From the IMG/VR virus record IMGVR_UViG_3300045988_101135, positions 66,762 to 130,761 of that record: a DNA stretch of 64,000 nt; one strand, 5' to 3'. Positions within the stretch are counted from its first letter, which is position 1; the number at the start of each line of letters is the position of its first letter. Shown here in pieces: positions 11,816 to 36,306 of the stretch. The position numbers and the translations under genes were made by a program. The notes beneath the pieces are model-generated. The model saw only the letters and a list, made by a program, of their open reading frames with translations, did no database searches and was not told where the DNA came from. This DNA is from a virus.

Positions 11816-12018
11816 TGGAAACATTAATCTTAGATGTACCTGTATTTTCCGGTAAGATTATTTCTCCTATCTGGATTAAAGCCGTAAGAGATTTTCAATC
11901 CAAATCGAAGACAGAAAGAGACTCGTATTGTTTGATTTGTGGATGTACAGGAGGGTGTAACTTGTGCGATGATATAAGTAAATATAGGATTTCAGAACAA
12001 TTAAAATATTACAAATAA
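11788..12018 (+). CDS. hypothetical Cys-containing small protein (76 aa)
   Basis: ORF with CLICGCTGGCNLC. Confidence 0.35.
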   Translation: MLYEYFAKIMETLILDVPVFSGKIISPIWIKAVRDFQSKSKTERDSYCLICGCTGGCNLCDDISKYRISEQLKYYK

Positions 12019-12749
12019 TGGAATTAAAAGATTCAGTCAGGGTAATGACTAAAGAAGAGTTCGAATCAGCAATCAACGAAGATATTAAATTCGTTGAAGG
12101 AATTAAGCATTTTTTTAAACATGATGATGCTACGAGGGTAATGGAACACGTAAAGTCCGTGTTAGAGGCATCAGTAGACTACCACTACCCGAATCATCCT
12201 GAACCTGAAGCAGAACCTGGAGACATGGGAGAGGTTTCTGATGGATACCATACTTTCAATGAATTGTATCGGTACCGCATGTTGTATAATGCCGCCTTCT
12301 TTAATCTATTAGCCAGAAACGGACAGGTTGAAGTTTGCAAATCAAGGAGACACAGCGATGGAGAAAAATGCTTCGGTTCTGATGATTGGTTTATTGTGAT
12401 GGCGATCCTACCTACCGGTCAGGTATCTAATCACTATGAAAGCAAATACTGGGATTTGTTTGATGTTCCTGAAAGAGAAACCGCTTTCGAATACGATGGC
12501 CATACACCAAATGAAGCCTCCGACAGACTTGAAAAGTATCTCAAACTGCCTCGTCATGGCATGACATTCGAACAGGCTTTAGAACGGCTTAAATTAGGTC
12601 GTAAGATAAAAAGAATCGATTGGGGTAAAAAGTATATCTGTATGTTTGACGTAAATATATTGATGATAGATACAGGTCAAAAAGTAGCATCAAATTGGAA
12701 TCCAACCGAACATGATATTATGTCTAATGACTGGGAGATTGCGGGATGA
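12018..12749 (+). CDS. protein with C-terminal DUF2829 (Tad2-like) domain
   Basis: The last ~60 aa read MTFEQALERLKLGRKIKRIDWGKKY...NWNPTEHDIMSNDWEI. This matches the F-x-EAL-x2-LK-x-G-KK-V-R-x-x-W ... D-W-E signature of the DUF2829/Tad2 family. The N-terminal 180 aa are unassigned. Confidence 0.5.
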   Translation: MELKDSVRVMTKEEFESAINEDIKFVEGIKHFFKHDDATRVMEHVKSVLEASVDYHYPNHPEPEAEPGDMGEVSDGYHTFNELYRYRMLYNAAFFNLLARNGQVEVCKSRRHSDGEKCFGSDDWFIVMAILPTGQVSNHYESKYWDLFDVPERETAFEYDGHTPNEASDRLEKYLKLPRHGMTFEQALERLKLGRKIKRIDWGKKYICMFDVNILMIDTGQKVASNWNPTEHDIMSNDWEIAG

Positions 12750-29463: not shown

Positions 29464-29633
29464 TGGACTCCCTTTAAGTAGTTAAACCATATATCCTCCA
29501 GCTTCTCCTGAAGTTCAAATGCTTTCTTGAAATTCCCACATCTTACAGCAACGTCTCTCATGTATTCTACGTTTATAACTTCCGGATCTTGCCGGTATTT
29601 TGTTCTTAACTTTTGAACGTCCTCGTATTTCAT
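29460..29633 (-). CDS. unlisted 57-aa ORF (MKYEDVQKLRTKYRQDPEVINVEYMRDVAVRCGNFKKAFELQEKLEDIWFNYLKGVQ)
   Basis: Hand translation shows that it fills the 166-nt gap exactly. ATGA overlaps both the upstream stop (29630) and the downstream start (29463). It is below the 60-aa cutoff of the supplied track. Confidence 0.45.
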   Translation of the reverse strand: MKYEDVQKLRTKYRQDPEVINVEYMRDVAVRCGNFKKAFELQEKLEDIWFNYLKGVQ

Positions 29634-30649
29634 CGTTTTATCTTTTTAGACGGATCCCAATCCGAAGAGAAAGGGCATTCGTTTTTGTTATGTAATCCAA
29701 AGTCACAATAGTAACACAGTGCTGACGGGCAGGGTAGCTTGTTTTGCGGAACAGGCTGGCTTAGGGTGGCACGCCGCTTGCTATACCTGGCTCCTTCTGC
29801 TCCCTGGATGTATGCCTGAAATGTTTTTACACTATTATCTTCAAAATCATACATTTTAGACAAAGTGTCATTTAGCATCTCTATAGATTTTGTTTTACGT
29901 TCCTCATCCACCTTAACCTTTTGGTATTGTCTGGTCCTGGTAAAGAAATAGATGTTCATATCTGGCAGAACTCCACCATATTTTCTATAGATGTAAAACG
30001 AATATATAGGATGCTGTAAATTCGTTTCCAACTTCTTAGAATCAAAAACCTTATTACCTGATTTCCAATCTATGACATAATGGTGAACTACGTTCTTGCT
30101 TTTTATAGCCAGATGAAGGTCTACCGATCCTACTATGTACACATGAGTATGAATTACTCCATTTATGTTAACAGGCTTAGGAAGACGGTACGGCAGCACA
30201 AAATCTTCTTCGACTCCAACTATAGCGCCGTGTCTGATAAGTTTCTCGCAGGGATTAAGATCACTATCAGCTATCATAAACCTATTGCCGTCTTTTTTGA
30301 ACAGATCCACAATCCAAGCAAGAAGCTCTCCAGATTGCTTCATGGCTATCATCATATTTTCCGGTGATTGCCAAGGTATGTCTTCTTGGTAAGCATAGTA
30401 ACTTATAGCTTCCCCCAGGTCTTTGCCAGAAGGCTGTCTTCCGTTCTTGAAGAAGTATTCCAGTGTCTTATGAATAACCGTACCATAAGACGTAGCTTCT
30501 TGTTTTTCCGTAGACCTTTTGCCCTCCACGTAAGTTTTATACCATTTCATTGGACAAGTAAGAAACGTATCTATCTGGGAATAAGATATGGCAAGACGTT
30601 TCACACCATTAAACTCCTTATATAGCAAATGCGTTTCCGGGACCATCAT
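29630..30649 (-). CDS. Cas4/RecB-like PD-(D/E)XK exonuclease with C-terminal 4-Cys cluster
   Basis: N-terminal YSQIDTFLTCPMKWY...GTVIHKTLE; core VGSVDLHLAI...IDWKSGN (D...D-x-K); C-terminal CPSALCYYCDFGLHNKNEC typical of Fe-S Cas4-family nucleases. Confidence 0.6.
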   Translation of the reverse strand: MMVPETHLLYKEFNGVKRLAISYSQIDTFLTCPMKWYKTYVEGKRSTEKQEATSYGTVIHKTLEYFFKNGRQPSGKDLGEAISYYAYQEDIPWQSPENMMIAMKQSGELLAWIVDLFKKDGNRFMIADSDLNPCEKLIRHGAIVGVEEDFVLPYRLPKPVNINGVIHTHVYIVGSVDLHLAIKSKNVVHHYVIDWKSGNKVFDSKKLETNLQHPIYSFYIYRKYGGVLPDMNIYFFTRTRQYQKVKVDEERKTKSIEMLNDTLSKMYDFEDNSVKTFQAYIQGAEGARYSKRRATLSQPVPQNKLPCPSALCYYCDFGLHNKNECPFSSDWDPSKKIKR

Positions 30650-31005
30650 AAGTCATTGTCTTTAAATCCTTCCGGGTAATATACGACATACTTCTTACCG
30701 TCTTCTGGTGTCATGGCAAACTGCATGTAGTTATTACGATTACGATGCTTGCCATCCAATCCTCGTTTCCAATACAGGATACCGTCTATATCCACATAAG
30801 ATCGGCCGCGGTCGGCTCTAACCACGTCCGTGTGTAGCAGATACCCGTCGGAAGACACAATCCACACTTTATCCCCTTTGCTTAAATAAGATATTCTTTT
30901 TCTTACAACAACCCTTTTCTTATTATCCAATACAAATTCCTCGTCAGTCATACTCTTCATCCTCCTCTTCTTCTGTTTCAAAATCAATTCCATAATACTG
31001 ATCAT
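30646..31005 (-). CDS. hypothetical protein (119 aa)
   Basis: ORF; the true start may be the internal Met (MKSMTDEEF). Confidence 0.45.
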   Translation of the reverse strand: MISIMELILKQKKRRMKSMTDEEFVLDNKKRVVVRKRISYLSKGDKVWIVSSDGYLLHTDVVRADRGRSYVDIDGILYWKRGLDGKHRNRNNYMQFAMTPEDGKKYVVYYPEGFKDNDL

Positions 31006-31126
31006 AATGCTTGGTCAGTTCTTCTGGTTCTAAATCTTGTCCAAAATCCATGTTAAAAATATCGTAATTAGTAAAGCACTGTTCCTGCCGGCAGGAAATC
31101 TATGAATGCTGCTTTTATTTCTTCAA

Positions 31127-32860
31127 TTAGGCCCAAGTGTAACCCTGGGCCATTGTATTTATTTTTTTGTCATCTCCTTTTAGCTTCTTTAAAGTATCTG
31201 CAATCGGAAGCTGATCAATGACTCCCAATGCCGGAGCGACGGTCTTAACAACATTGTTAAGGAAATTACCGGTACTGTTCTGACCGCCGTCAAATACCGT
31301 GATATTTCCGAGGTTAATGTGCTCAAATGCCTTAACCTGTTCTCCGGCAATTTCTTTCCACTGATTAACCATCTTGTACTGGATGGCGATCTGAGGATTG
31401 GATTCTGCTGCTTCCACCATAGCCTTAAATCCGTCGGCTTCTGCCATCAACGACTTTTTCTTACCTTCGGCTTCCGCTTCCAGCTTCATCTGAATAGCTT
31501 TTGCTTCCGCCTCTGCTTTTGCCAAATGTGCTGCTGCTTCAGCATCGGCCCGGCGTTTGATCTTCTCGGCCTCGGCATCAGCTTGCAACATAGCCTCCTG
31601 CTTCTGAATTTCAGCCGGCACAATCTTTTCAGCTTTAAGCGCAGCTTGAACCTTCTTAGCTTTAGCTTCTTCCACTTCTTTATCAGCAAGCTCTTTTGCC
31701 GTTTTCACAGCCGCTTCCGATTTAACTTTCTCTTCTCCGGCTTTCTTTTCTGATTGAGCTTTGATAACCTGCAATTCTGATTCTGATACAGCAACCTCTT
31801 TCTGGGCATTGTTGTAGCCTACAGAAGCATTTTTCTCAGCCTCAGCTTTCTTAATCTGAGCTTCAGAGTCTTGTATTGCTATAGCTGCTTGTTTGTCAGC
31901 TTCAGCTTTATTCTTTCCAACTTCTTCCATTCTTTCGGCTTCAGCTTTGTTTACTTCAAGTTCCGCCTTAGATCTTGCAATCGCTGATTCCTTGTCAGCC
32001 AAAGTCTTTGCTATAGCCGCAGCCCTATCTCTATCGGCTTGAGCTACACCGATCTGTTTTTCTTTATCGGTTAAAGCCAAAGCTACTTCTTTTTCTTTCT
32101 TTGTTTCAGCTACTACCGTTTCTTTTTCTTTTTCAGTATAGGCAATTTGAATCTCTTGCTCTTTTTGGGTATTAGCTACAGCCGTTTCTTTTTCCTTCTG
32201 TTGTACAGCAATCTTAATAGCACCCAGCTTTTCCTGTTCTTCGATATTAGCCTGTGCTTCGTTCAGAGCCTTGCTTTCAGCCTCTTTACCAAGATTCATG
32301 ATGTAGCCGGCTTCATCTCTGATGTCACTGATGTTAATGTTCAAAAGATAAAGACCCAATTTATTAAGTTCGTTATCAATGTTTTTTCTTGCCTTATCCA
32401 AAAACTCATCCCTATCAGAATTAAGTTTTTCGATTGTCATTTCGGCAATAATCAAACGCATCTGACCGTAAACGATGTCTGTAATAAGATTTTCAGTAGA
32501 TTCGGTATCCATCCCCAAAAGTCTTTCTGCTGCATTTTGCATGATTTCAGGATTTGTACTGATAGCTACTGTAATAGTTGTAGGCACATCTACTCTAATA
32601 TTCTGAGATGACAAAGCACCGGTAAGCCTACAATCTATTTGCATAGGCTCCATAGACAAAACATCATAGCTTTGAATAATAGGCAAGACAAATGCCGCTC
32701 CACCATGATATAATTTTGCCGACTTCTTTTCCCCACCTGTCTTACCGTAAACGACCAAGACCTGATTAGGCTTACATCTACGATACCTTGATAAGACTCC
32801 GATGATTGTCAAAATAATCACTACAGCTAAGATGGCTGACACGTACATAATTGTTGTCAT
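31127..32860 (-). CDS. flotillin-like SPFH/band-7 membrane scaffold protein (577 aa)
   Basis: N-terminal TM helix (VSAILAVVIILTIIGVL), an SPFH core (PNQVLVVYGKTG...), and a long Ala/Glu/Lys coiled-coil with EAEA repeats; architecture of FloT/YqiK. Confidence 0.75.
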   Translation of the reverse strand: MTTIMYVSAILAVVIILTIIGVLSRYRRCKPNQVLVVYGKTGGEKKSAKLYHGGAAFVLPIIQSYDVLSMEPMQIDCRLTGALSSQNIRVDVPTTITVAISTNPEIMQNAAERLLGMDTESTENLITDIVYGQMRLIIAEMTIEKLNSDRDEFLDKARKNIDNELNKLGLYLLNINISDIRDEAGYIMNLGKEAESKALNEAQANIEEQEKLGAIKIAVQQKEKETAVANTQKEQEIQIAYTEKEKETVVAETKKEKEVALALTDKEKQIGVAQADRDRAAAIAKTLADKESAIARSKAELEVNKAEAERMEEVGKNKAEADKQAAIAIQDSEAQIKKAEAEKNASVGYNNAQKEVAVSESELQVIKAQSEKKAGEEKVKSEAAVKTAKELADKEVEEAKAKKVQAALKAEKIVPAEIQKQEAMLQADAEAEKIKRRADAEAAAHLAKAEAEAKAIQMKLEAEAEGKKKSLMAEADGFKAMVEAAESNPQIAIQYKMVNQWKEIAGEQVKAFEHINLGNITVFDGGQNSTGNFLNNVVKTVAPALGVIDQLPIADTLKKLKGDDKKINTMAQGYTWA

Positions 32861-32891
32861 AACTTTTAAAATTTAATTGTTGATAAAAAAA

Positions 32892-33386
32892 TTAGATAAT
32901 TAATTCTCCTTCTTCGTATTTTATATTCACCTTGTCACCGTTTTTGTAAGTTTTTCCAGACAAGCATCTTACTCTCATTTGCTCCTGTCTTCCATTTTTC
33001 GAAATATTTACCATATAATGATTCTTCCCTGATCTAAACACTATCTCCACCTCTCTGCCATTTAAATCTTCCGGACATTCGTACACCATTTCTTGCTTTA
33101 ACTTAAGAAGTAACTTATATACGTAAAACAAAACGATAAAGAAAAACGACCCTATCACAACCCCTACTAAATGGGAACCCGAAAAGTAGGTAGTCCAGCT
33201 ATATCCAAGAATAAAATGTGTTATGCCCTTGAATGATATGATGTCCGACAAAGACATACTTAAATCAGAAGCATCATCAATATCAATATCCGTATCCAGA
33301 TCAGATCCTAATATCGACAACAAAAACTGTATAACAAAAGCAAATGACGCTATTAAAGCCATGCATAAAATTATGTCACTTCCCAT
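32892..33386 (-). CDS. NfeD-like membrane protein (short YuaF-type), partner of flotillin
   Basis: Three N-terminal hydrophobic helices plus a C-terminal soluble beta domain (EVEIVFRSGKNHYMVNI...GDKVNIKYEEGELII). It sits immediately upstream of the flotillin gene, as in yuaF-floT operons. Confidence 0.6.
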   Translation of the reverse strand: MGSDIILCMALIASFAFVIQFLLSILGSDLDTDIDIDDASDLSMSLSDIISFKGITHFILGYSWTTYFSGSHLVGVVIGSFFFIVLFYVYKLLLKLKQEMVYECPEDLNGREVEIVFRSGKNHYMVNISKNGRQEQMRVRCLSGKTYKNGDKVNIKYEEGELII

Positions 33387-33627
33387 ATCCTTCTGTTATT
33401 ATTTTGTAAACAAGATCAGTCATATCTTTGATGGTCTCCATATCATAATCATTAATAACAATATTGAATTTTTGTTCCACCATCACTTCCAGTTCAATTT
33501 GATCGATAGAATCTAATCCAAGTTCTTTAAACGTCACATCTTCTTCATGAACTATATCTATTTCCGAATTAAGAAACTGAGTAATAATTATATCCTCTAT
33601 TATCTTTCTGATTCTTACTTTTTCCAT
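33376..33627 (-). CDS. acyl carrier protein-like (83 aa)
   Basis: FKELGLDSIDQIELEVMVEQKFNIVI matches the ACP helix II DSL phosphopantetheine-attachment motif. Confidence 0.7.
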   Translation of the reverse strand: MEKVRIRKIIEDIIITQFLNSEIDIVHEEDVTFKELGLDSIDQIELEVMVEQKFNIVINDYDMETIKDMTDLVYKIITEGYGK

Positions 33628-34328
33628 TGCTTTCTAATTTTGTTAAATAAATACGTTTTTATGTTTTTCAATCGCTCTTTGTCTGTTTCAGAACTTCCGG
33701 TAAACAAATAATCCGGATTGCCTTTAGCCGGCGGCGTAGGCAATTTAGATACGGCAAACAACCAATCCATTTCCTTATTCTTCTTAGACTCCAAATAAGG
33801 CTCGGTAGCGATCTTAAATTTTTCAGCTATTAAGTCAAAGAGCTTTGAATTTTTAAGGTTCATATGGACCGAAAAGGCCTGAGAAGGCGGTTTCCATATG
33901 AAGTTACATAAGCTCATTGTATAATCTCCTGACTCTGCTATATAAGATTCCGTTACCTGAAGTATGACCTCTTTCTTGAATGAGGTGTTACCCATAAACC
34001 AACACAACCTGGATTCCGCTTCTTTTCTGCTGACACCTATGTCTTTTGAATACGATTCGTACATTCCTATCATAATCTTCAACGTTTCCAGAACCTCGTC
34101 TGTCATCTCCGGTGTCTCTATATAATTCACAAAAGACGTTCCTTTGTTGGTCAATCTCATCACGCCTGATTTTAATTTCTCAACCAGGCCAAGCTCTATA
34201 TACCTCCCAGCATCTTTTTCCAGCATGGCTTCGATCATAACCGTATCCTTCTGTCTTATAGCAAGAAGATTAGCCAGATCATTAGGAGTCATGTCTGATG
34301 CTGCAAGTTGTCTGAAATTGATGTACAT
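33615..34328 (-). CDS. hypothetical protein (237 aa)
   Basis: ORF overlapping the ACP gene start by 13 nt. Confidence 0.5.
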   Translation of the reverse strand: MYINFRQLAASDMTPNDLANLLAIRQKDTVMIEAMLEKDAGRYIELGLVEKLKSGVMRLTNKGTSFVNYIETPEMTDEVLETLKIMIGMYESYSKDIGVSRKEAESRLCWFMGNTSFKKEVILQVTESYIAESGDYTMSLCNFIWKPPSQAFSVHMNLKNSKLFDLIAEKFKIATEPYLESKKNKEMDWLFAVSKLPTPPAKGNPDYLFTGSSETDKERLKNIKTYLFNKIRKQWKK

Positions 34329-34555: not shown

Positions 34556-35158
34556 TTAACTGTTGTACCCTTCTTTGATAATCGAATTTCTACCGGTAGA
34601 TACCGACTGTCGAAGATCGTCATGTACAGAATCTACCGTAGAATACTTGTTTCTGGTTGTAAAAATCACTTCCAGCATCTCCTTGTAATCACCTAAAGCT
34701 ACTTCATATCTCGGATCTACTTTGGCTTTTCTTTCGGCCTCGGCATTACTCTTAGCCAGCTCTCGGTCAAGAAGATCTTCTTTGATTCGGTCAGCAATCA
34801 TATCAAGTTCTTTTTTTATGACTTCTCCTGCTGCCCGAAGTTGACCTTCTACGTCGCCAAGCTGATCTTGGACGGTTCCTATTTCTTTCTTTAGGCGATC
34901 GTATTCGTTAATCATACCCATATCACCTGCATAGCCGGAAAAGTCCTTGATTATTCTGGTTCCTTCTTTAAGGAGTTCAATAACTCGTCTTTTACGTTCT
35001 CTGCTTATTAAAGACGGAAGACGATAATTCATATCCGCCACCGCCTTATCATGTATGGAGTTGATTAAAAACATCTCTCTTTCATCCCCTGCAAACTCAG
35101 TAAGAACCAAAAGGAACTTACTTATCAGGTATTCGTTTTCTTCTACTGTTAGTCTCAT
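34556..35158 (-). CDS. hypothetical coiled-coil protein (start trimmed to Met 35158)
   Basis: The track ORF (to 35311) would overlap the helicase gene by 139 nt; the internal ATG lies right after the helicase stop. Confidence 0.5.
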   Translation of the reverse strand: MRLTVEENEYLISKFLLVLTEFAGDEREMFLINSIHDKAVADMNYRLPSLISRERKRRVIELLKEGTRIIKDFSGYAGDMGMINEYDRLKKEIGTVQDQLGDVEGQLRAAGEVIKKELDMIADRIKEDLLDRELAKSNAEAERKAKVDPRYEVALGDYKEMLEVIFTTRNKYSTVDSVHDDLRQSVSTGRNSIIKEGYNS

Positions 35159-35172
35159 GGTTCTTATTTTTT

Positions 35173-36306
35173 TTAATACAATGACTGTTCTTCCTTTGTC
35201 TCTTGTTCTTGATCTTGATTGTTCGTAACGTCTTCCACAGTATAGAGCTTGGGCGGCGTCGGCGGCTGGTTGGGGTTCACGAACTTCGTCCCGCCCTCCC
35301 CGTACATCCATCCATGTCCCGGCAGTATCTCTGGGTGGATTGTATTAGTAAGCTCTTCCATACTAACTTGCCTTACCTTCAGTATATGATGAAACACCAG
35401 TCCGGCTGTCCTGAATGATGTTTTGTTTTCAGTTTTAAACCTATCAAGAGTCTGATACCAATCTTTCCCAAATATCATATACTTATCCAGCCCGTACCTA
35501 CGAGGATTGTGCAAGCCTATCATTAACGTACATAACTGACCCAGCGTATCAGACTGGTAAAAATCAGAAAGACGCGGAGGCTGCTCTTGTGGGCTTTTTA
35601 TCCTTCCTTCTATTTCTCTGTTGAATTGGGATATGATGAGGAAAAATATGTTTTTATATACTAATTTAGCTTCGTTCATAACCGCCACCAAATCATCTAT
35701 AGCCGACTTAGGATCTAATCCCATTCTTTTTATCAAAGCAATATGATCGACTTTAAATATTATAAGACGTTTGTCTTTATGTTTGGTAGCTATATGATAC
35801 ACAGCCGCCTCAAACTCTTTTACCGTACACGGAGCATCGATGTATATTATATTATTTCTGATTTCACCTTGAAGGATTTCAAACATCCTCATCTCTTCTA
35901 CTGTATTAGAATCTTGCCTTCTTAATATTTCAGGAGCCCGCTTTTTCATATCCTGGCTCATTCTACGAAGAAGAAGATCTTGAGGATTCATTTCGAACTC
36001 GCAATTAACAAGAAAATAATCTTCTGCTTGCGGGTTGATCATCGGATTCATCACATTTTCCAATATCTTTTGGGCCACATACGATTTACCTACAGATGGC
36101 CGGGCTCCTATGGCAATAGCATGCTGAGGGAAAATACCTCCAAGCAAAGCCTCATCAATATAATCGTATCCGGTTTTAGCGGGGATAAGCTCTCCCCGCC
36201 TGTATTTCAAGATATTCTCATACGCCTCTTCCATAACTTGTTTAGAGGTCTTGAATATCCTTCTTATATCTATCCTATTTGCTATCTCCTCTTGCATTTT
36301 TGTCAC
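35173..36306 (-). CDS. DnaB-family replicative helicase (C-terminal RecA-like domain)
   Basis: GARPSVGKS Walker A, FEMNPQDLLLRRMS, IFKVDHIALI, ISQFNREIEGR match the DnaB C-terminal domain motifs. The ATG at 36297 is the likely start (GTG at 36306). Confidence 0.7.
   Translation of the reverse strand: MTKMQEEIANRIDIRRIFKTSKQVMEEAYENILKYRRGELIPAKTGYDYIDEALLGGIFPQHAIAIGARPSVGKSYVAQKILENVMNPMINPQAEDYFLVNCEFEMNPQDLLLRRMSQDMKKRAPEILRRQDSNTVEEMRMFEILQGEIRNNIIYIDAPCTVKEFEAAVYHIATKHKDKRLIIFKVDHIALIKRMGLDPKSAIDDLVAVMNEAKLVYKNIFFLIISQFNREIEGRIKSPQEQPPRLSDFYQSDTLGQLCTLMIGLHNPRRYGLDKYMIFGKDWYQTLDRFKTENKTSFRTAGLVFHHILKVRQVSMEELTNTIHPEILPGHGWMYGEGGTKFVNPNQPPTPPKLYTVEDVTNNQDQEQETKEEQSLY

Follow-up and report, generated by a model that had tools for sequence, protein, structure and literature searches.

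A virus-borne stretch of DNA in which a flotillin gene, an NfeD-like gene and an acyl carrier protein (ACP) gene lie side by side raises the question of whether the three genes form a single membrane or lipid module, or are neighbors with separate histories. The stretch is a 64,000-nucleotide (nt) window of IMG/VR record IMGVR_UViG_3300045988_101135 (positions 66,762 to 130,761 of that record), and a first-pass annotation had read the trio as one module. We find two units. The NfeD-like and flotillin genes (unit A, 31127-33386) correspond to a bacterial chromosomal operon, and the ACP gene belongs with a fourth gene, p237, to an older phage pair (unit B, 33376-34328). We are highly confident in the anatomy and evolutionary history of these two units. 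As an explanation of the whole, it is probable that unit A is a host-derived accessory membrane-scaffold operon beside an independent p237/ACP unit that happens to abut it; the function proposed below for the flotillin pair in infection is tentative. The genes concerned are:

31127..32860, minus strand: flotillin, SPFH2 type, 577 amino acids (aa); Pfam Band_7 and Flot
32892..33386, minus strand: short NfeD-like partner (NfeD2/YuaF type), 164 aa; fold, remote profile and gene order
33376..33627, minus strand: ACP-like protein, 83 aa; Pfam PP-binding and phrog_5934
33615..34328, minus strand: p237, 237 aa; predicted N-terminal MarR-type winged helix and helical C-terminal domain

The first three lie on the strand and at the coordinates that the first-pass annotation had given them. 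The 577-aa protein matches Pfam Band_7 (PF01145) over residues 30-211 (E 3.1e-25, 89.7 bits against a cut-off of 23.6) and Pfam Flot (PF15975) over residues 450-559, its C-terminal domain (E 1.5e-9, 38.5 bits against a cut-off of 27). Residues 1-28 are hydrophobic and are predicted to be an N-terminal membrane anchor, and in the coiled coil at residues 212-449 the residues A, E, K and Q make up 63% of positions, with 21 EA or AE dipeptides. The membrane anchor, SPFH domain and EA-rich coiled coil that had been read from the sequence are thus borne out. NCBIfam FloT (NF058507) also matches (E 7e-43) and scores 147.4 bits against an equivalog cut-off of 700. Judged by these matches, the protein is a member of the flotillin family rather than a FloT equivalog, and is of flotillin type (SPFH2) rather than HflK/C type (SPFH3). 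Homologs range from 408 to 659 aa and differ by in-frame insertions and deletions in the coiled coil (P0001-P0120, L172-L251), and the window protein has an 11-aa C-terminal extension (577 versus the usual 566 aa). In rare proteins (P0140, P0147 and P0151) an NfeD-like N-terminus is fused to a flotillin C-terminus, indicating internal deletions.

Flotillin is unusual cargo for a phage, as had been supposed. Full-length flotillin occurs in only 2 of 50,697 phage records, and no PHROGs family matches either the flotillin or the NfeD-like protein. Around 160 IMG/VR contigs carry the phage flotillin, and in 2.9 million viral contigs 165 of the 166 matches to Bacteroidales-type flotillins come from the phage lineage of the window, and the remaining match is probably in flanking host DNA. 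One 25-kb IMG/VR contig has, near its end, a flotillin (L333:981-2276) that is 95% identical to a bacterial (Phocaeicola-type) gene; this contig probably includes host DNA beside a prophage or was called viral in error.

The 164-aa gene lies upstream of flotillin and ends 31 nt from it, which is the yuaF-floT order described in the first-pass annotation. An AlphaFold2 model of the protein has a predicted local distance difference test score (pLDDT) of 75 overall and of about 86 in the C-terminal part. It predicts three transmembrane (TM) helices (residues 2-25, 52-69 and 72-100), followed by a disordered acidic DxDxDxD loop and a C-terminal beta domain of six strands, which has the form of an NfeD-type OB-fold beta-barrel. 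When a family profile of 79 sequences was compared to the PDB, the best match was Bacillus subtilis YuaF (2k14), over the whole C-terminal domain and with marginal significance (E 0.017); a profile of four sequences found no match in the PDB, and the larger one was needed. Two of the 79 family members match Pfam NfeD directly (best E 6e-5). A word-indexed search with the 164-aa protein returned homologs solely within the phage lineage, an exhaustive profile search returned 444 representative clusters, mostly of 160-180 aa, and in UniRef the Phocaeicola ortholog is named 'NfeD-like C-terminal domain-containing protein'. NfeD2 proteins associated with flotillins are described as having three hydrophobic regions, a short polar linker and a domain made wholly of beta strands, with very little sequence similarity to other NfeD proteins (PMC2636767), and the architecture of the 164-aa protein agrees with this description. 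We accept it as a short NfeD on the basis of fold, remote profile and gene order rather than a curated family match.

Both genes of unit A have counterparts in bacterial chromosomes. In a scan of one genome per species, flotillin was found in Bacteroides, Phocaeicola, Parabacteroides, Prevotella and relatives, and in 79 of 80 Bacteroidales loci a small gene is located 35-330 nt upstream of it; the remaining locus ends at a contig edge. Over its full length, the phage flotillin shares 64-66% identity with these chromosomal flotillins, and the small partner shares 30-41% with its counterparts. P0109, the most distant homolog in the flotillin protein search, is in a bacterial chromosomal context with lysyl-tRNA synthetase, PGI and chorismate synthase as neighbors and no ACP nearby; directly upstream of it is a gene for a 165-aa protein that shares 39% identity with the phage 164-aa protein (E 9e-40). 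The ACP and p237 are absent from all 80 bacterial flotillin loci. Distance trees of flotillin and NfeD are congruent: each places the phage sequences in a single clade that lies outside the crown of bacterial genera. Flotillins of these genera are 84-94% identical among themselves. A search of 5.8 billion sequences found no bacterial flotillin closer than ∼65%. P0109 itself (L085:8001-9980) is a Phocaeicola massiliensis-type flotillin with an internal duplication of ∼115 SPFH-domain residues that reference genomes lack; it may have arisen in assembly or by genuine tandem duplication.

The simplest reading of these sequences is a single, old and joint capture of an NfeD-like/flotillin operon from a Bacteroidia host. 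This reading fits the view that SPFH2-NfeD2 pairs transfer laterally together (PMC2636767), as well as predictions from clustered regularly interspaced short palindromic repeat (CRISPR) spacers, which name Bacteroides, Parabacteroides and Porphyromonas as hosts of epsilon crAss-like phages (PMC11054128). The origin of the pair independently supports a Bacteroidia host for these uncultured phages.

The relation to this phage group comes from the DNA itself. The window is 95% identical to csAssE-Sib (OR575929), an epsilon crAss-like phage of the human gut with a genome of 151 kb (Babkin et al. 2024; PMC11054128). In GenBank, the corresponding region of OR575929 is labeled 'flotillin family protein', 'transmembrane protein' and 'acyl carrier protein', so the novelty that the first-pass annotation had claimed is limited. 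The text on csAssE-Sib in PMC11054128 mentions flotillin, ACP or membranes nowhere, and a literature search on flotillin and crAss-like phages found no paper linking them. The phage flotillin and ACP had thus been annotated before and had gone undiscussed. In a large protein collection from public assemblies, the phage NfeD-like, ACP and p237 proteins each occur on ∼800-1000 or more contigs, and some public copies are mislabeled 'uncultured Dialister sp.'. The exact NfeD-like and ACP sequences of the phage (P0390 and P0404; window 32892-33627) are, for example, WP_288877837 and WP_288877835 under that name in NCBI/RefSeq, and these entries most likely derive from a phage contig mis-binned into a bacterial metagenome-assembled genome.

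Evidence from the ACP gene separates it from unit A. The 83-aa protein matches Pfam PP-binding (PF00550; E 9.1e-8, 32.7 bits against a cut-off of 20.8) and phrog_5934, 'acyl carrier protein' (E 3.4e-9), and is acidic, with 20 D/E versus 9 K/R residues. It scores below all NCBIfam cut-offs for ACPs (best 32.8 bits versus 65-146) and falls short of an AcpP equivalog. The carrier serine that had been reported as an intact DSL motif is present as Ser40; it lies within LGLDSID and the motif is DSI, not DSL. The gene shares 11 nt with the NfeD-like gene and 13 nt with p237. A suggestion that the gene at 33615..34328 encodes a phosphopantetheinyl transferase (PPTase) or acyltransferase did not hold, as the model of p237 (pLDDT 86.8) shows a MarR-type winged helix. 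p237 matched no Pfam or PHROG family, its C-terminal domain matched no fold or family, and its sole viral structural match is an uncharacterized protein of Cellulophaga phage phi14:2. Because csAssE-Sib has a second 237-aa coding sequence, a paralog of p237 was considered, and tblastn found none within the window.

Surveys of viral contigs that draw on the best 80 matches cover near-identical genomes only, and divergent loci were reached by re-ordering the alignments. Across 80 divergent viral loci chosen via p237, flotillin and NfeD are each absent from all 80. In 72 of these loci an ACP-like gene is located 2-6 nt downstream of p237 or overlaps it, often as a tandem pair. The sister epsilon crAss-like lineage represented by L090 and L091 has p237 and an overlapping ACP at the same position, after DnaB and before a PD-(D/E)XK exonuclease, and in place of the membrane pair the ACP is followed by a C5 DNA methylase and two radical-SAM genes. 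A downstream gene, p119, follows the DNA methylase in L090 and follows flotillin in the window.

The carrier serine is also variable across this broader group. Among 106 aligned sequences (102 ACP-like genes of divergent relatives and four seed sequences), the position is occupied by serine in 58, proline in 38, aspartate in five, leucine in three and phenylalanine in two; the L090 ortholog reads LGFDDLD, with the serine replaced. Divergent loci most often have either a single copy, with serine, or two copies, of which the first has serine and the second proline. The latter arrangement of tandem genes after p237 is present in 25 loci (e.g., L263:4701-5256 and L264:4703-5258), and at L272:4701-5258 two ACP-like genes are fused into one open reading frame (ORF) of 185 aa. 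Close relatives of the window keep the serine wherever the motif is recognizable, and those lacking flotillin retain the ACP unchanged. The first-pass annotation had noted that the ACP would need a PPTase and an acyl donor. No member of the PPTase (ACPS/Sfp), acyltransferase, Fab or acyl-ACP synthetase/AMP-binding families was found among the 79 window ORFs scanned, and the annotation of OR575929, the complete relative, names none; host enzymes could serve the ACP in place of a phage-encoded loading enzyme. We conclude that p237 and the ACP are an older phage pair, separate from the flotillin pair. It is conceivable, though unlikely, that this pair acts as a regulator that reads the acyl-ACP state of the host.

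These results bear directly on the view that flotillin, NfeD and ACP make up one membrane-raft or lipid module, with the ACP as supplier of acyl chains for a specialized lipid or for acylation of proteins, by which the phage would build a replication or assembly compartment at the membrane. The genes are adjacent and overlapping on one strand, the serine is kept in the window and in close relatives with a recognizable motif, and all four genes are present in order in 80 of 80 close relatives chosen via flotillin, as well as in phage lineages whose flotillins are 83% and 70% identical to that of the window. Given the tight overlaps between p237 and ACP and between ACP and the NfeD-like gene, all four genes are probably co-transcribed in the window; scans for sigma-70 promoters and terminators gave background levels only, and the sigma-70 model is uninformative for Bacteroidales promoters. 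The four-gene arrangement holds among flotillin-selected close relatives, but in divergent relatives, including L090 and L091, ACP and p237 occur free of flotillin. Moreover, the bacterial source operon has no ACP, flotillin-less relatives do not alter theirs, the serine is often replaced by Pro, Asp, Leu or Phe, no loading enzyme was found among the 79 window ORFs scanned, and p237 is of winged-helix type. Because the ACP belongs to an older pair with a DNA-binding protein, a lipid module is not supported. Synteny has largely refuted the single-module view already, and we regard it as very improbable.

The position and polymorphism of flotillin within the phage genome are informative about unit A. 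The surrounding replication block includes DnaB, a primase and a PD-(D/E)XK exonuclease (Pfam and PHROGs), in keeping with the replication-gene setting that the first-pass annotation had described. The junctions and downstream flank are as follows:

32861..32891, minus strand: 31-nt spacer between the NfeD-like gene and flotillin; upstream cassette junction, reads TAATTTTTTTATCAAC...
31006..31126, minus strand: 121-nt spacer after the flotillin stop codon; downstream cassette junction, reads ...GATATTTTTAACATGGATTTTGG
30646..31005, minus strand: p119; conserved downstream flank of the variable slot, followed by the exonuclease
29630-30649: PD-(D/E)XK exonuclease; Pfam PDDEXK_1, E 8.9e-21

In relatives without flotillin, TAATTTTT is joined straight to AATATGGATTTTGG, which places a short ATTTTT microhomology on either side of the flotillin gene. 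These genomes have ATGGATTTTGGACAAGATTTAGAACC directly after the NfeD-like gene, the same as the downstream junction of the window.

Presence and absence were scored in 80 near-identical loci chosen via p237, a sample that is unbiased for flotillin and in which 78 loci are informative. Flotillin is present in 56 loci (four with a frame change and one cut by a contig end), absent with the NfeD-like gene kept in 21, and absent together with the NfeD-like gene in two; one locus is uninformative. Hence, 27% of informative relatives (21 of 78) lack flotillin and keep its partner. An artefact of ORF calling or of filtering with profile models was ruled out for the 25 loci without a flotillin ORF, as tblastn confirms the absences. 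In a tree of 3.7 kb of flanking backbone, flotillin-less genomes are scattered among carriers, and some pairs with and without flotillin differ by <1% over this backbone. Both patterns point to repeated loss or exchange of flotillin.

In other lineages, the slot is occupied by a C5 DNA methylase, radical-SAM enzymes, a DPBB protein or a HEARO RNA. The HEARO RNA (RF02033, an IscB-type omega RNA; L198:5504-5743, 117 bits, E 1.6e-25) sits in the flotillin slot, between the NfeD-like gene and p119, of four flotillin-less genomes (L198, L201, L212 and L246). The insert is ∼360-430 nt, too small for an IscB ORF, and in L201 and L212 it shortens the NfeD-like gene to 133 aa. At L255:4919-6826 the same slot has a C5 cytosine DNA methylase split by an intein with Hint and intein-splicing domains, and in L254 it has an uninterrupted C5 cytosine DNA methylase of 279 aa.

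Despite its patchy distribution, unit A is under strong purifying selection. In comparisons of the window to relatives at two levels of divergence, the ratio of nonsynonymous to synonymous substitution rates (dN/dS) is 0.03-0.06 for flotillin and 0.07 for the NfeD-like gene, equal to the values for DnaB (0.05) and the exonuclease (0.04). The ratio is 0.05-0.08 for p237 and 0.22-0.24 for the ACP. Values of 0.03-0.07 indicate that the membrane pair is functional in the phage. NfeD-like genes that are orphaned, i.e., are without a phage flotillin, have a ratio of nonsynonymous to synonymous polymorphism (pN/pS) of 0.11 versus 0.07 in carriers, and none of the 12 full-length orphan copies tested has a premature stop.

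We suggest that unit A was captured once, as a pair, by an ancestor of the epsilon crAss-like lineage and would have landed in a variable cargo slot of the replication-gene block. When expressed in an infected Bacteroidales cell, flotillin would most likely be held in the cytoplasmic membrane by its N-terminal anchor and form oligomers via its coiled coil, and the OB domain of the NfeD-like protein most likely binds flotillin, as for FloA-NfeD and YuaF-FloT. The phage assemblies would add to, or mix with, the 64%-identical flotillin of the host. In Staphylococcus aureus, FloA and NfeD form clamp-shaped assemblies that stabilize unfolded membrane proteins without ATP (PMC11222466). By analogy, the probable benefit to the phage would be a membrane and membrane proteins that are kept functional during infection or a long carrier state. 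As close relatives are repeatedly without flotillin, any such benefit would have to be conditional. Unit B would supply no lipid for flotillin in this model, and would be an older phage pair of a winged-helix DNA-binding protein and a small acidic partner with an ACP fold.

Several points weigh against this explanation. The 164-aa window protein has no match to Pfam NfeD (PF01957) at E<0.1 and its profile match to YuaF is marginal, so the NfeD-type partner named in the first-pass annotation stands by fold, remote profile and gene order while the curated profile misses it. Given the gene overlaps, the ACP may conceivably have a functional link to the membrane pair in this lineage. Frequent loss shows that flotillin is dispensable and is equally compatible with a role in an arms race of defense and counter-defense. 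The pN/pS of orphan NfeD-like genes includes substitutions older than the loss of flotillin. Lastly, the role suggested for infection is extrapolated from homologs in Firmicutes.

Other explanations of the pair give it a different purpose. The NfeD-like protein could be the key effector, docking on host flotillin, with the optional phage flotillin co-assembling with or replacing the host scaffold; the virus would thereby take over the SPFH microdomain of Bacteroidales, stabilizing its own membrane proteins or timing lysis or persistence. We consider this unlikely; if true, no viral takeover of a bacterial flotillin system would have been described before it. The pair could also be an arms-race set, either a superinfection-exclusion or abortive-infection-like defense, or a counter-defense against a membrane-based defense of the host, for example if the NfeD-like protein or flotillin of the phage poisons or rewires host flotillin assemblies. 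Scattered presence and absence among near-identical genomes is typical of such cargo, the same slot in other lineages has C5 DNA methylases that are candidates for anti-restriction, and the genome has other anti-defense candidates, such as a Tad2-like domain. Purifying selection on the NfeD-like gene in the absence of phage flotillin (pN/pS 0.11) further suggests that a host partner is usable. However, flotillin, the NfeD-like protein and the ACP match no PADLOC defense model (p237 has only a weak match to LmuC, 0.002), no defense system built on an NfeD-flotillin pair was present in the libraries searched, and the low dN/dS of flotillin fits a housekeeping-type scaffold better than a fast-evolving protein. 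We regard an arms-race set as unlikely. Control of a host membrane protease, by which the pair would stabilize a phage regulator or membrane protein in the manner of HflK/C or YbbK-YbbJ with FtsH, is improbable. SPFH proteins including HflK/C and YbbK interact with FtsH (PMC2636767), Epsilonunoviruses carry repressor and anti-repressor genes that have been proposed as a switch (PMC11054128), and the Bacteroides ortholog of the small partner has the public name 'membrane protein implicated in regulation of membrane protease activity'. A name of this kind is a general COG description rather than a tested function, though, the phage protein is of SPFH2 and not SPFH3 type, and a link to FtsH is unsupported in Bacteroidales.

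It is barely credible that the genes are a nonfunctional passenger, a bacterial contaminant or an assembly chimera. Frame changes in four of 56 flotillin loci, rare fusion and deletion products and the lack of flotillin in 27% of relatives are what such an account would draw on. The same arrangement is nonetheless found on ∼160 independent viral contigs and in a complete GenBank genome, dN/dS is 0.03-0.07, the phage clade is distinct and only 64% identical to any bacterium, and 5.8 billion sequences include no closer bacterial protein. Selection and replication evidence have already refuted this account. A host-derived accessory scaffold operon next to an independent p237/ACP unit remains the explanation that we prefer.

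Bacterial flotillins and their NfeD partners are nearly universal, and their function is poorly understood, above all in Bacteroidales. An abundant phage lineage of the human gut that keeps its own flotillin under selection as strong as that on the replicative helicase is of interest, and natural variants with and without flotillin, existing side by side, provide a ready comparison for the role of the scaffold in infection or carriage. The genes of this virus-borne NfeD2-SPFH2 operon are canonical and host-derived, and rare in phages; the finding demonstrates no new mechanism. It also corrects the over-reading as a lipid module that an ACP next to flotillin tempts one to make.

Two other features of the window were observed. 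On the minus strand at 34556-35311 is a 251-aa ORF that shares 139 nt with the end of dnaB; in relatives the called product is 200 aa long, and translation probably starts further downstream than the first in-frame ATG. At 12018-12749 on the plus strand is a gene for a 243-aa protein with a WDGH domain (E 4.5e-36) and a Tad2-like Thoeris anti-defense domain (E 5.6e-11), which on these matches is a candidate anti-defense gene of the same phage.

Compared to known systems, unit B invites an analogy with the Lactobacillales, in which FabT is a MarR-type repressor with a dedicated ACP, acyl-AcpB, as co-repressor. The likeness of p237 to FabT is that of a generic winged-helix fold over ∼85 residues, the additional helical domain of ∼150 residues in p237 is unmatched, and many ACP copies lack the serine; we set the analogy aside as a lead only. 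For unit A, the only other near full-length match in the 50,697 phage records is the 'flotillin family protein' of Vibrio phage KIT04 (LC487410; 91% coverage), a T5-like member of the Demerecviridae. It is 28% identical to the window flotillin, suggesting an independent acquisition, and is preceded by an 82-aa hypothetical gene, with no recognizable 164-aa NfeD and no ACP nearby.

The yuaF-floT (yuaG) genes of B. subtilis and the nfeD-floA genes of S. aureus, both SPFH2 with NfeD2, have the NfeD gene first and flotillin second, as in the phage. Their flotillins share the anchor, SPFH domain, EA-rich coiled coil and C-terminal region with that of the phage, and their NfeD proteins share the TM helices and OB fold. 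The relation to the phage pair is nevertheless remote in sequence, and the phage is without a yuaI-like third gene. Functions in proteostasis and fluidity have been shown experimentally for flotillins of Firmicutes, rather than for those of Bacteroidales or phages. The chromosomal nfeD-flotillin operon of Bacteroidales, as in Phocaeicola massiliensis and Bacteroides xylanisolvens XB1A, is much the same as unit A. Its two genes match those of unit A in kind and order and are likewise separated by a short spacer, with flotillins of like domain layout and partners alike in three TM helices, acidic loop and OB domain. Unlike this operon, the phage copy lies inside a viral replication block and adjoins a phage ACP, forms its own clade, is patchy among close relatives, and varies in the length of its coiled coil by in-frame insertions and deletions.

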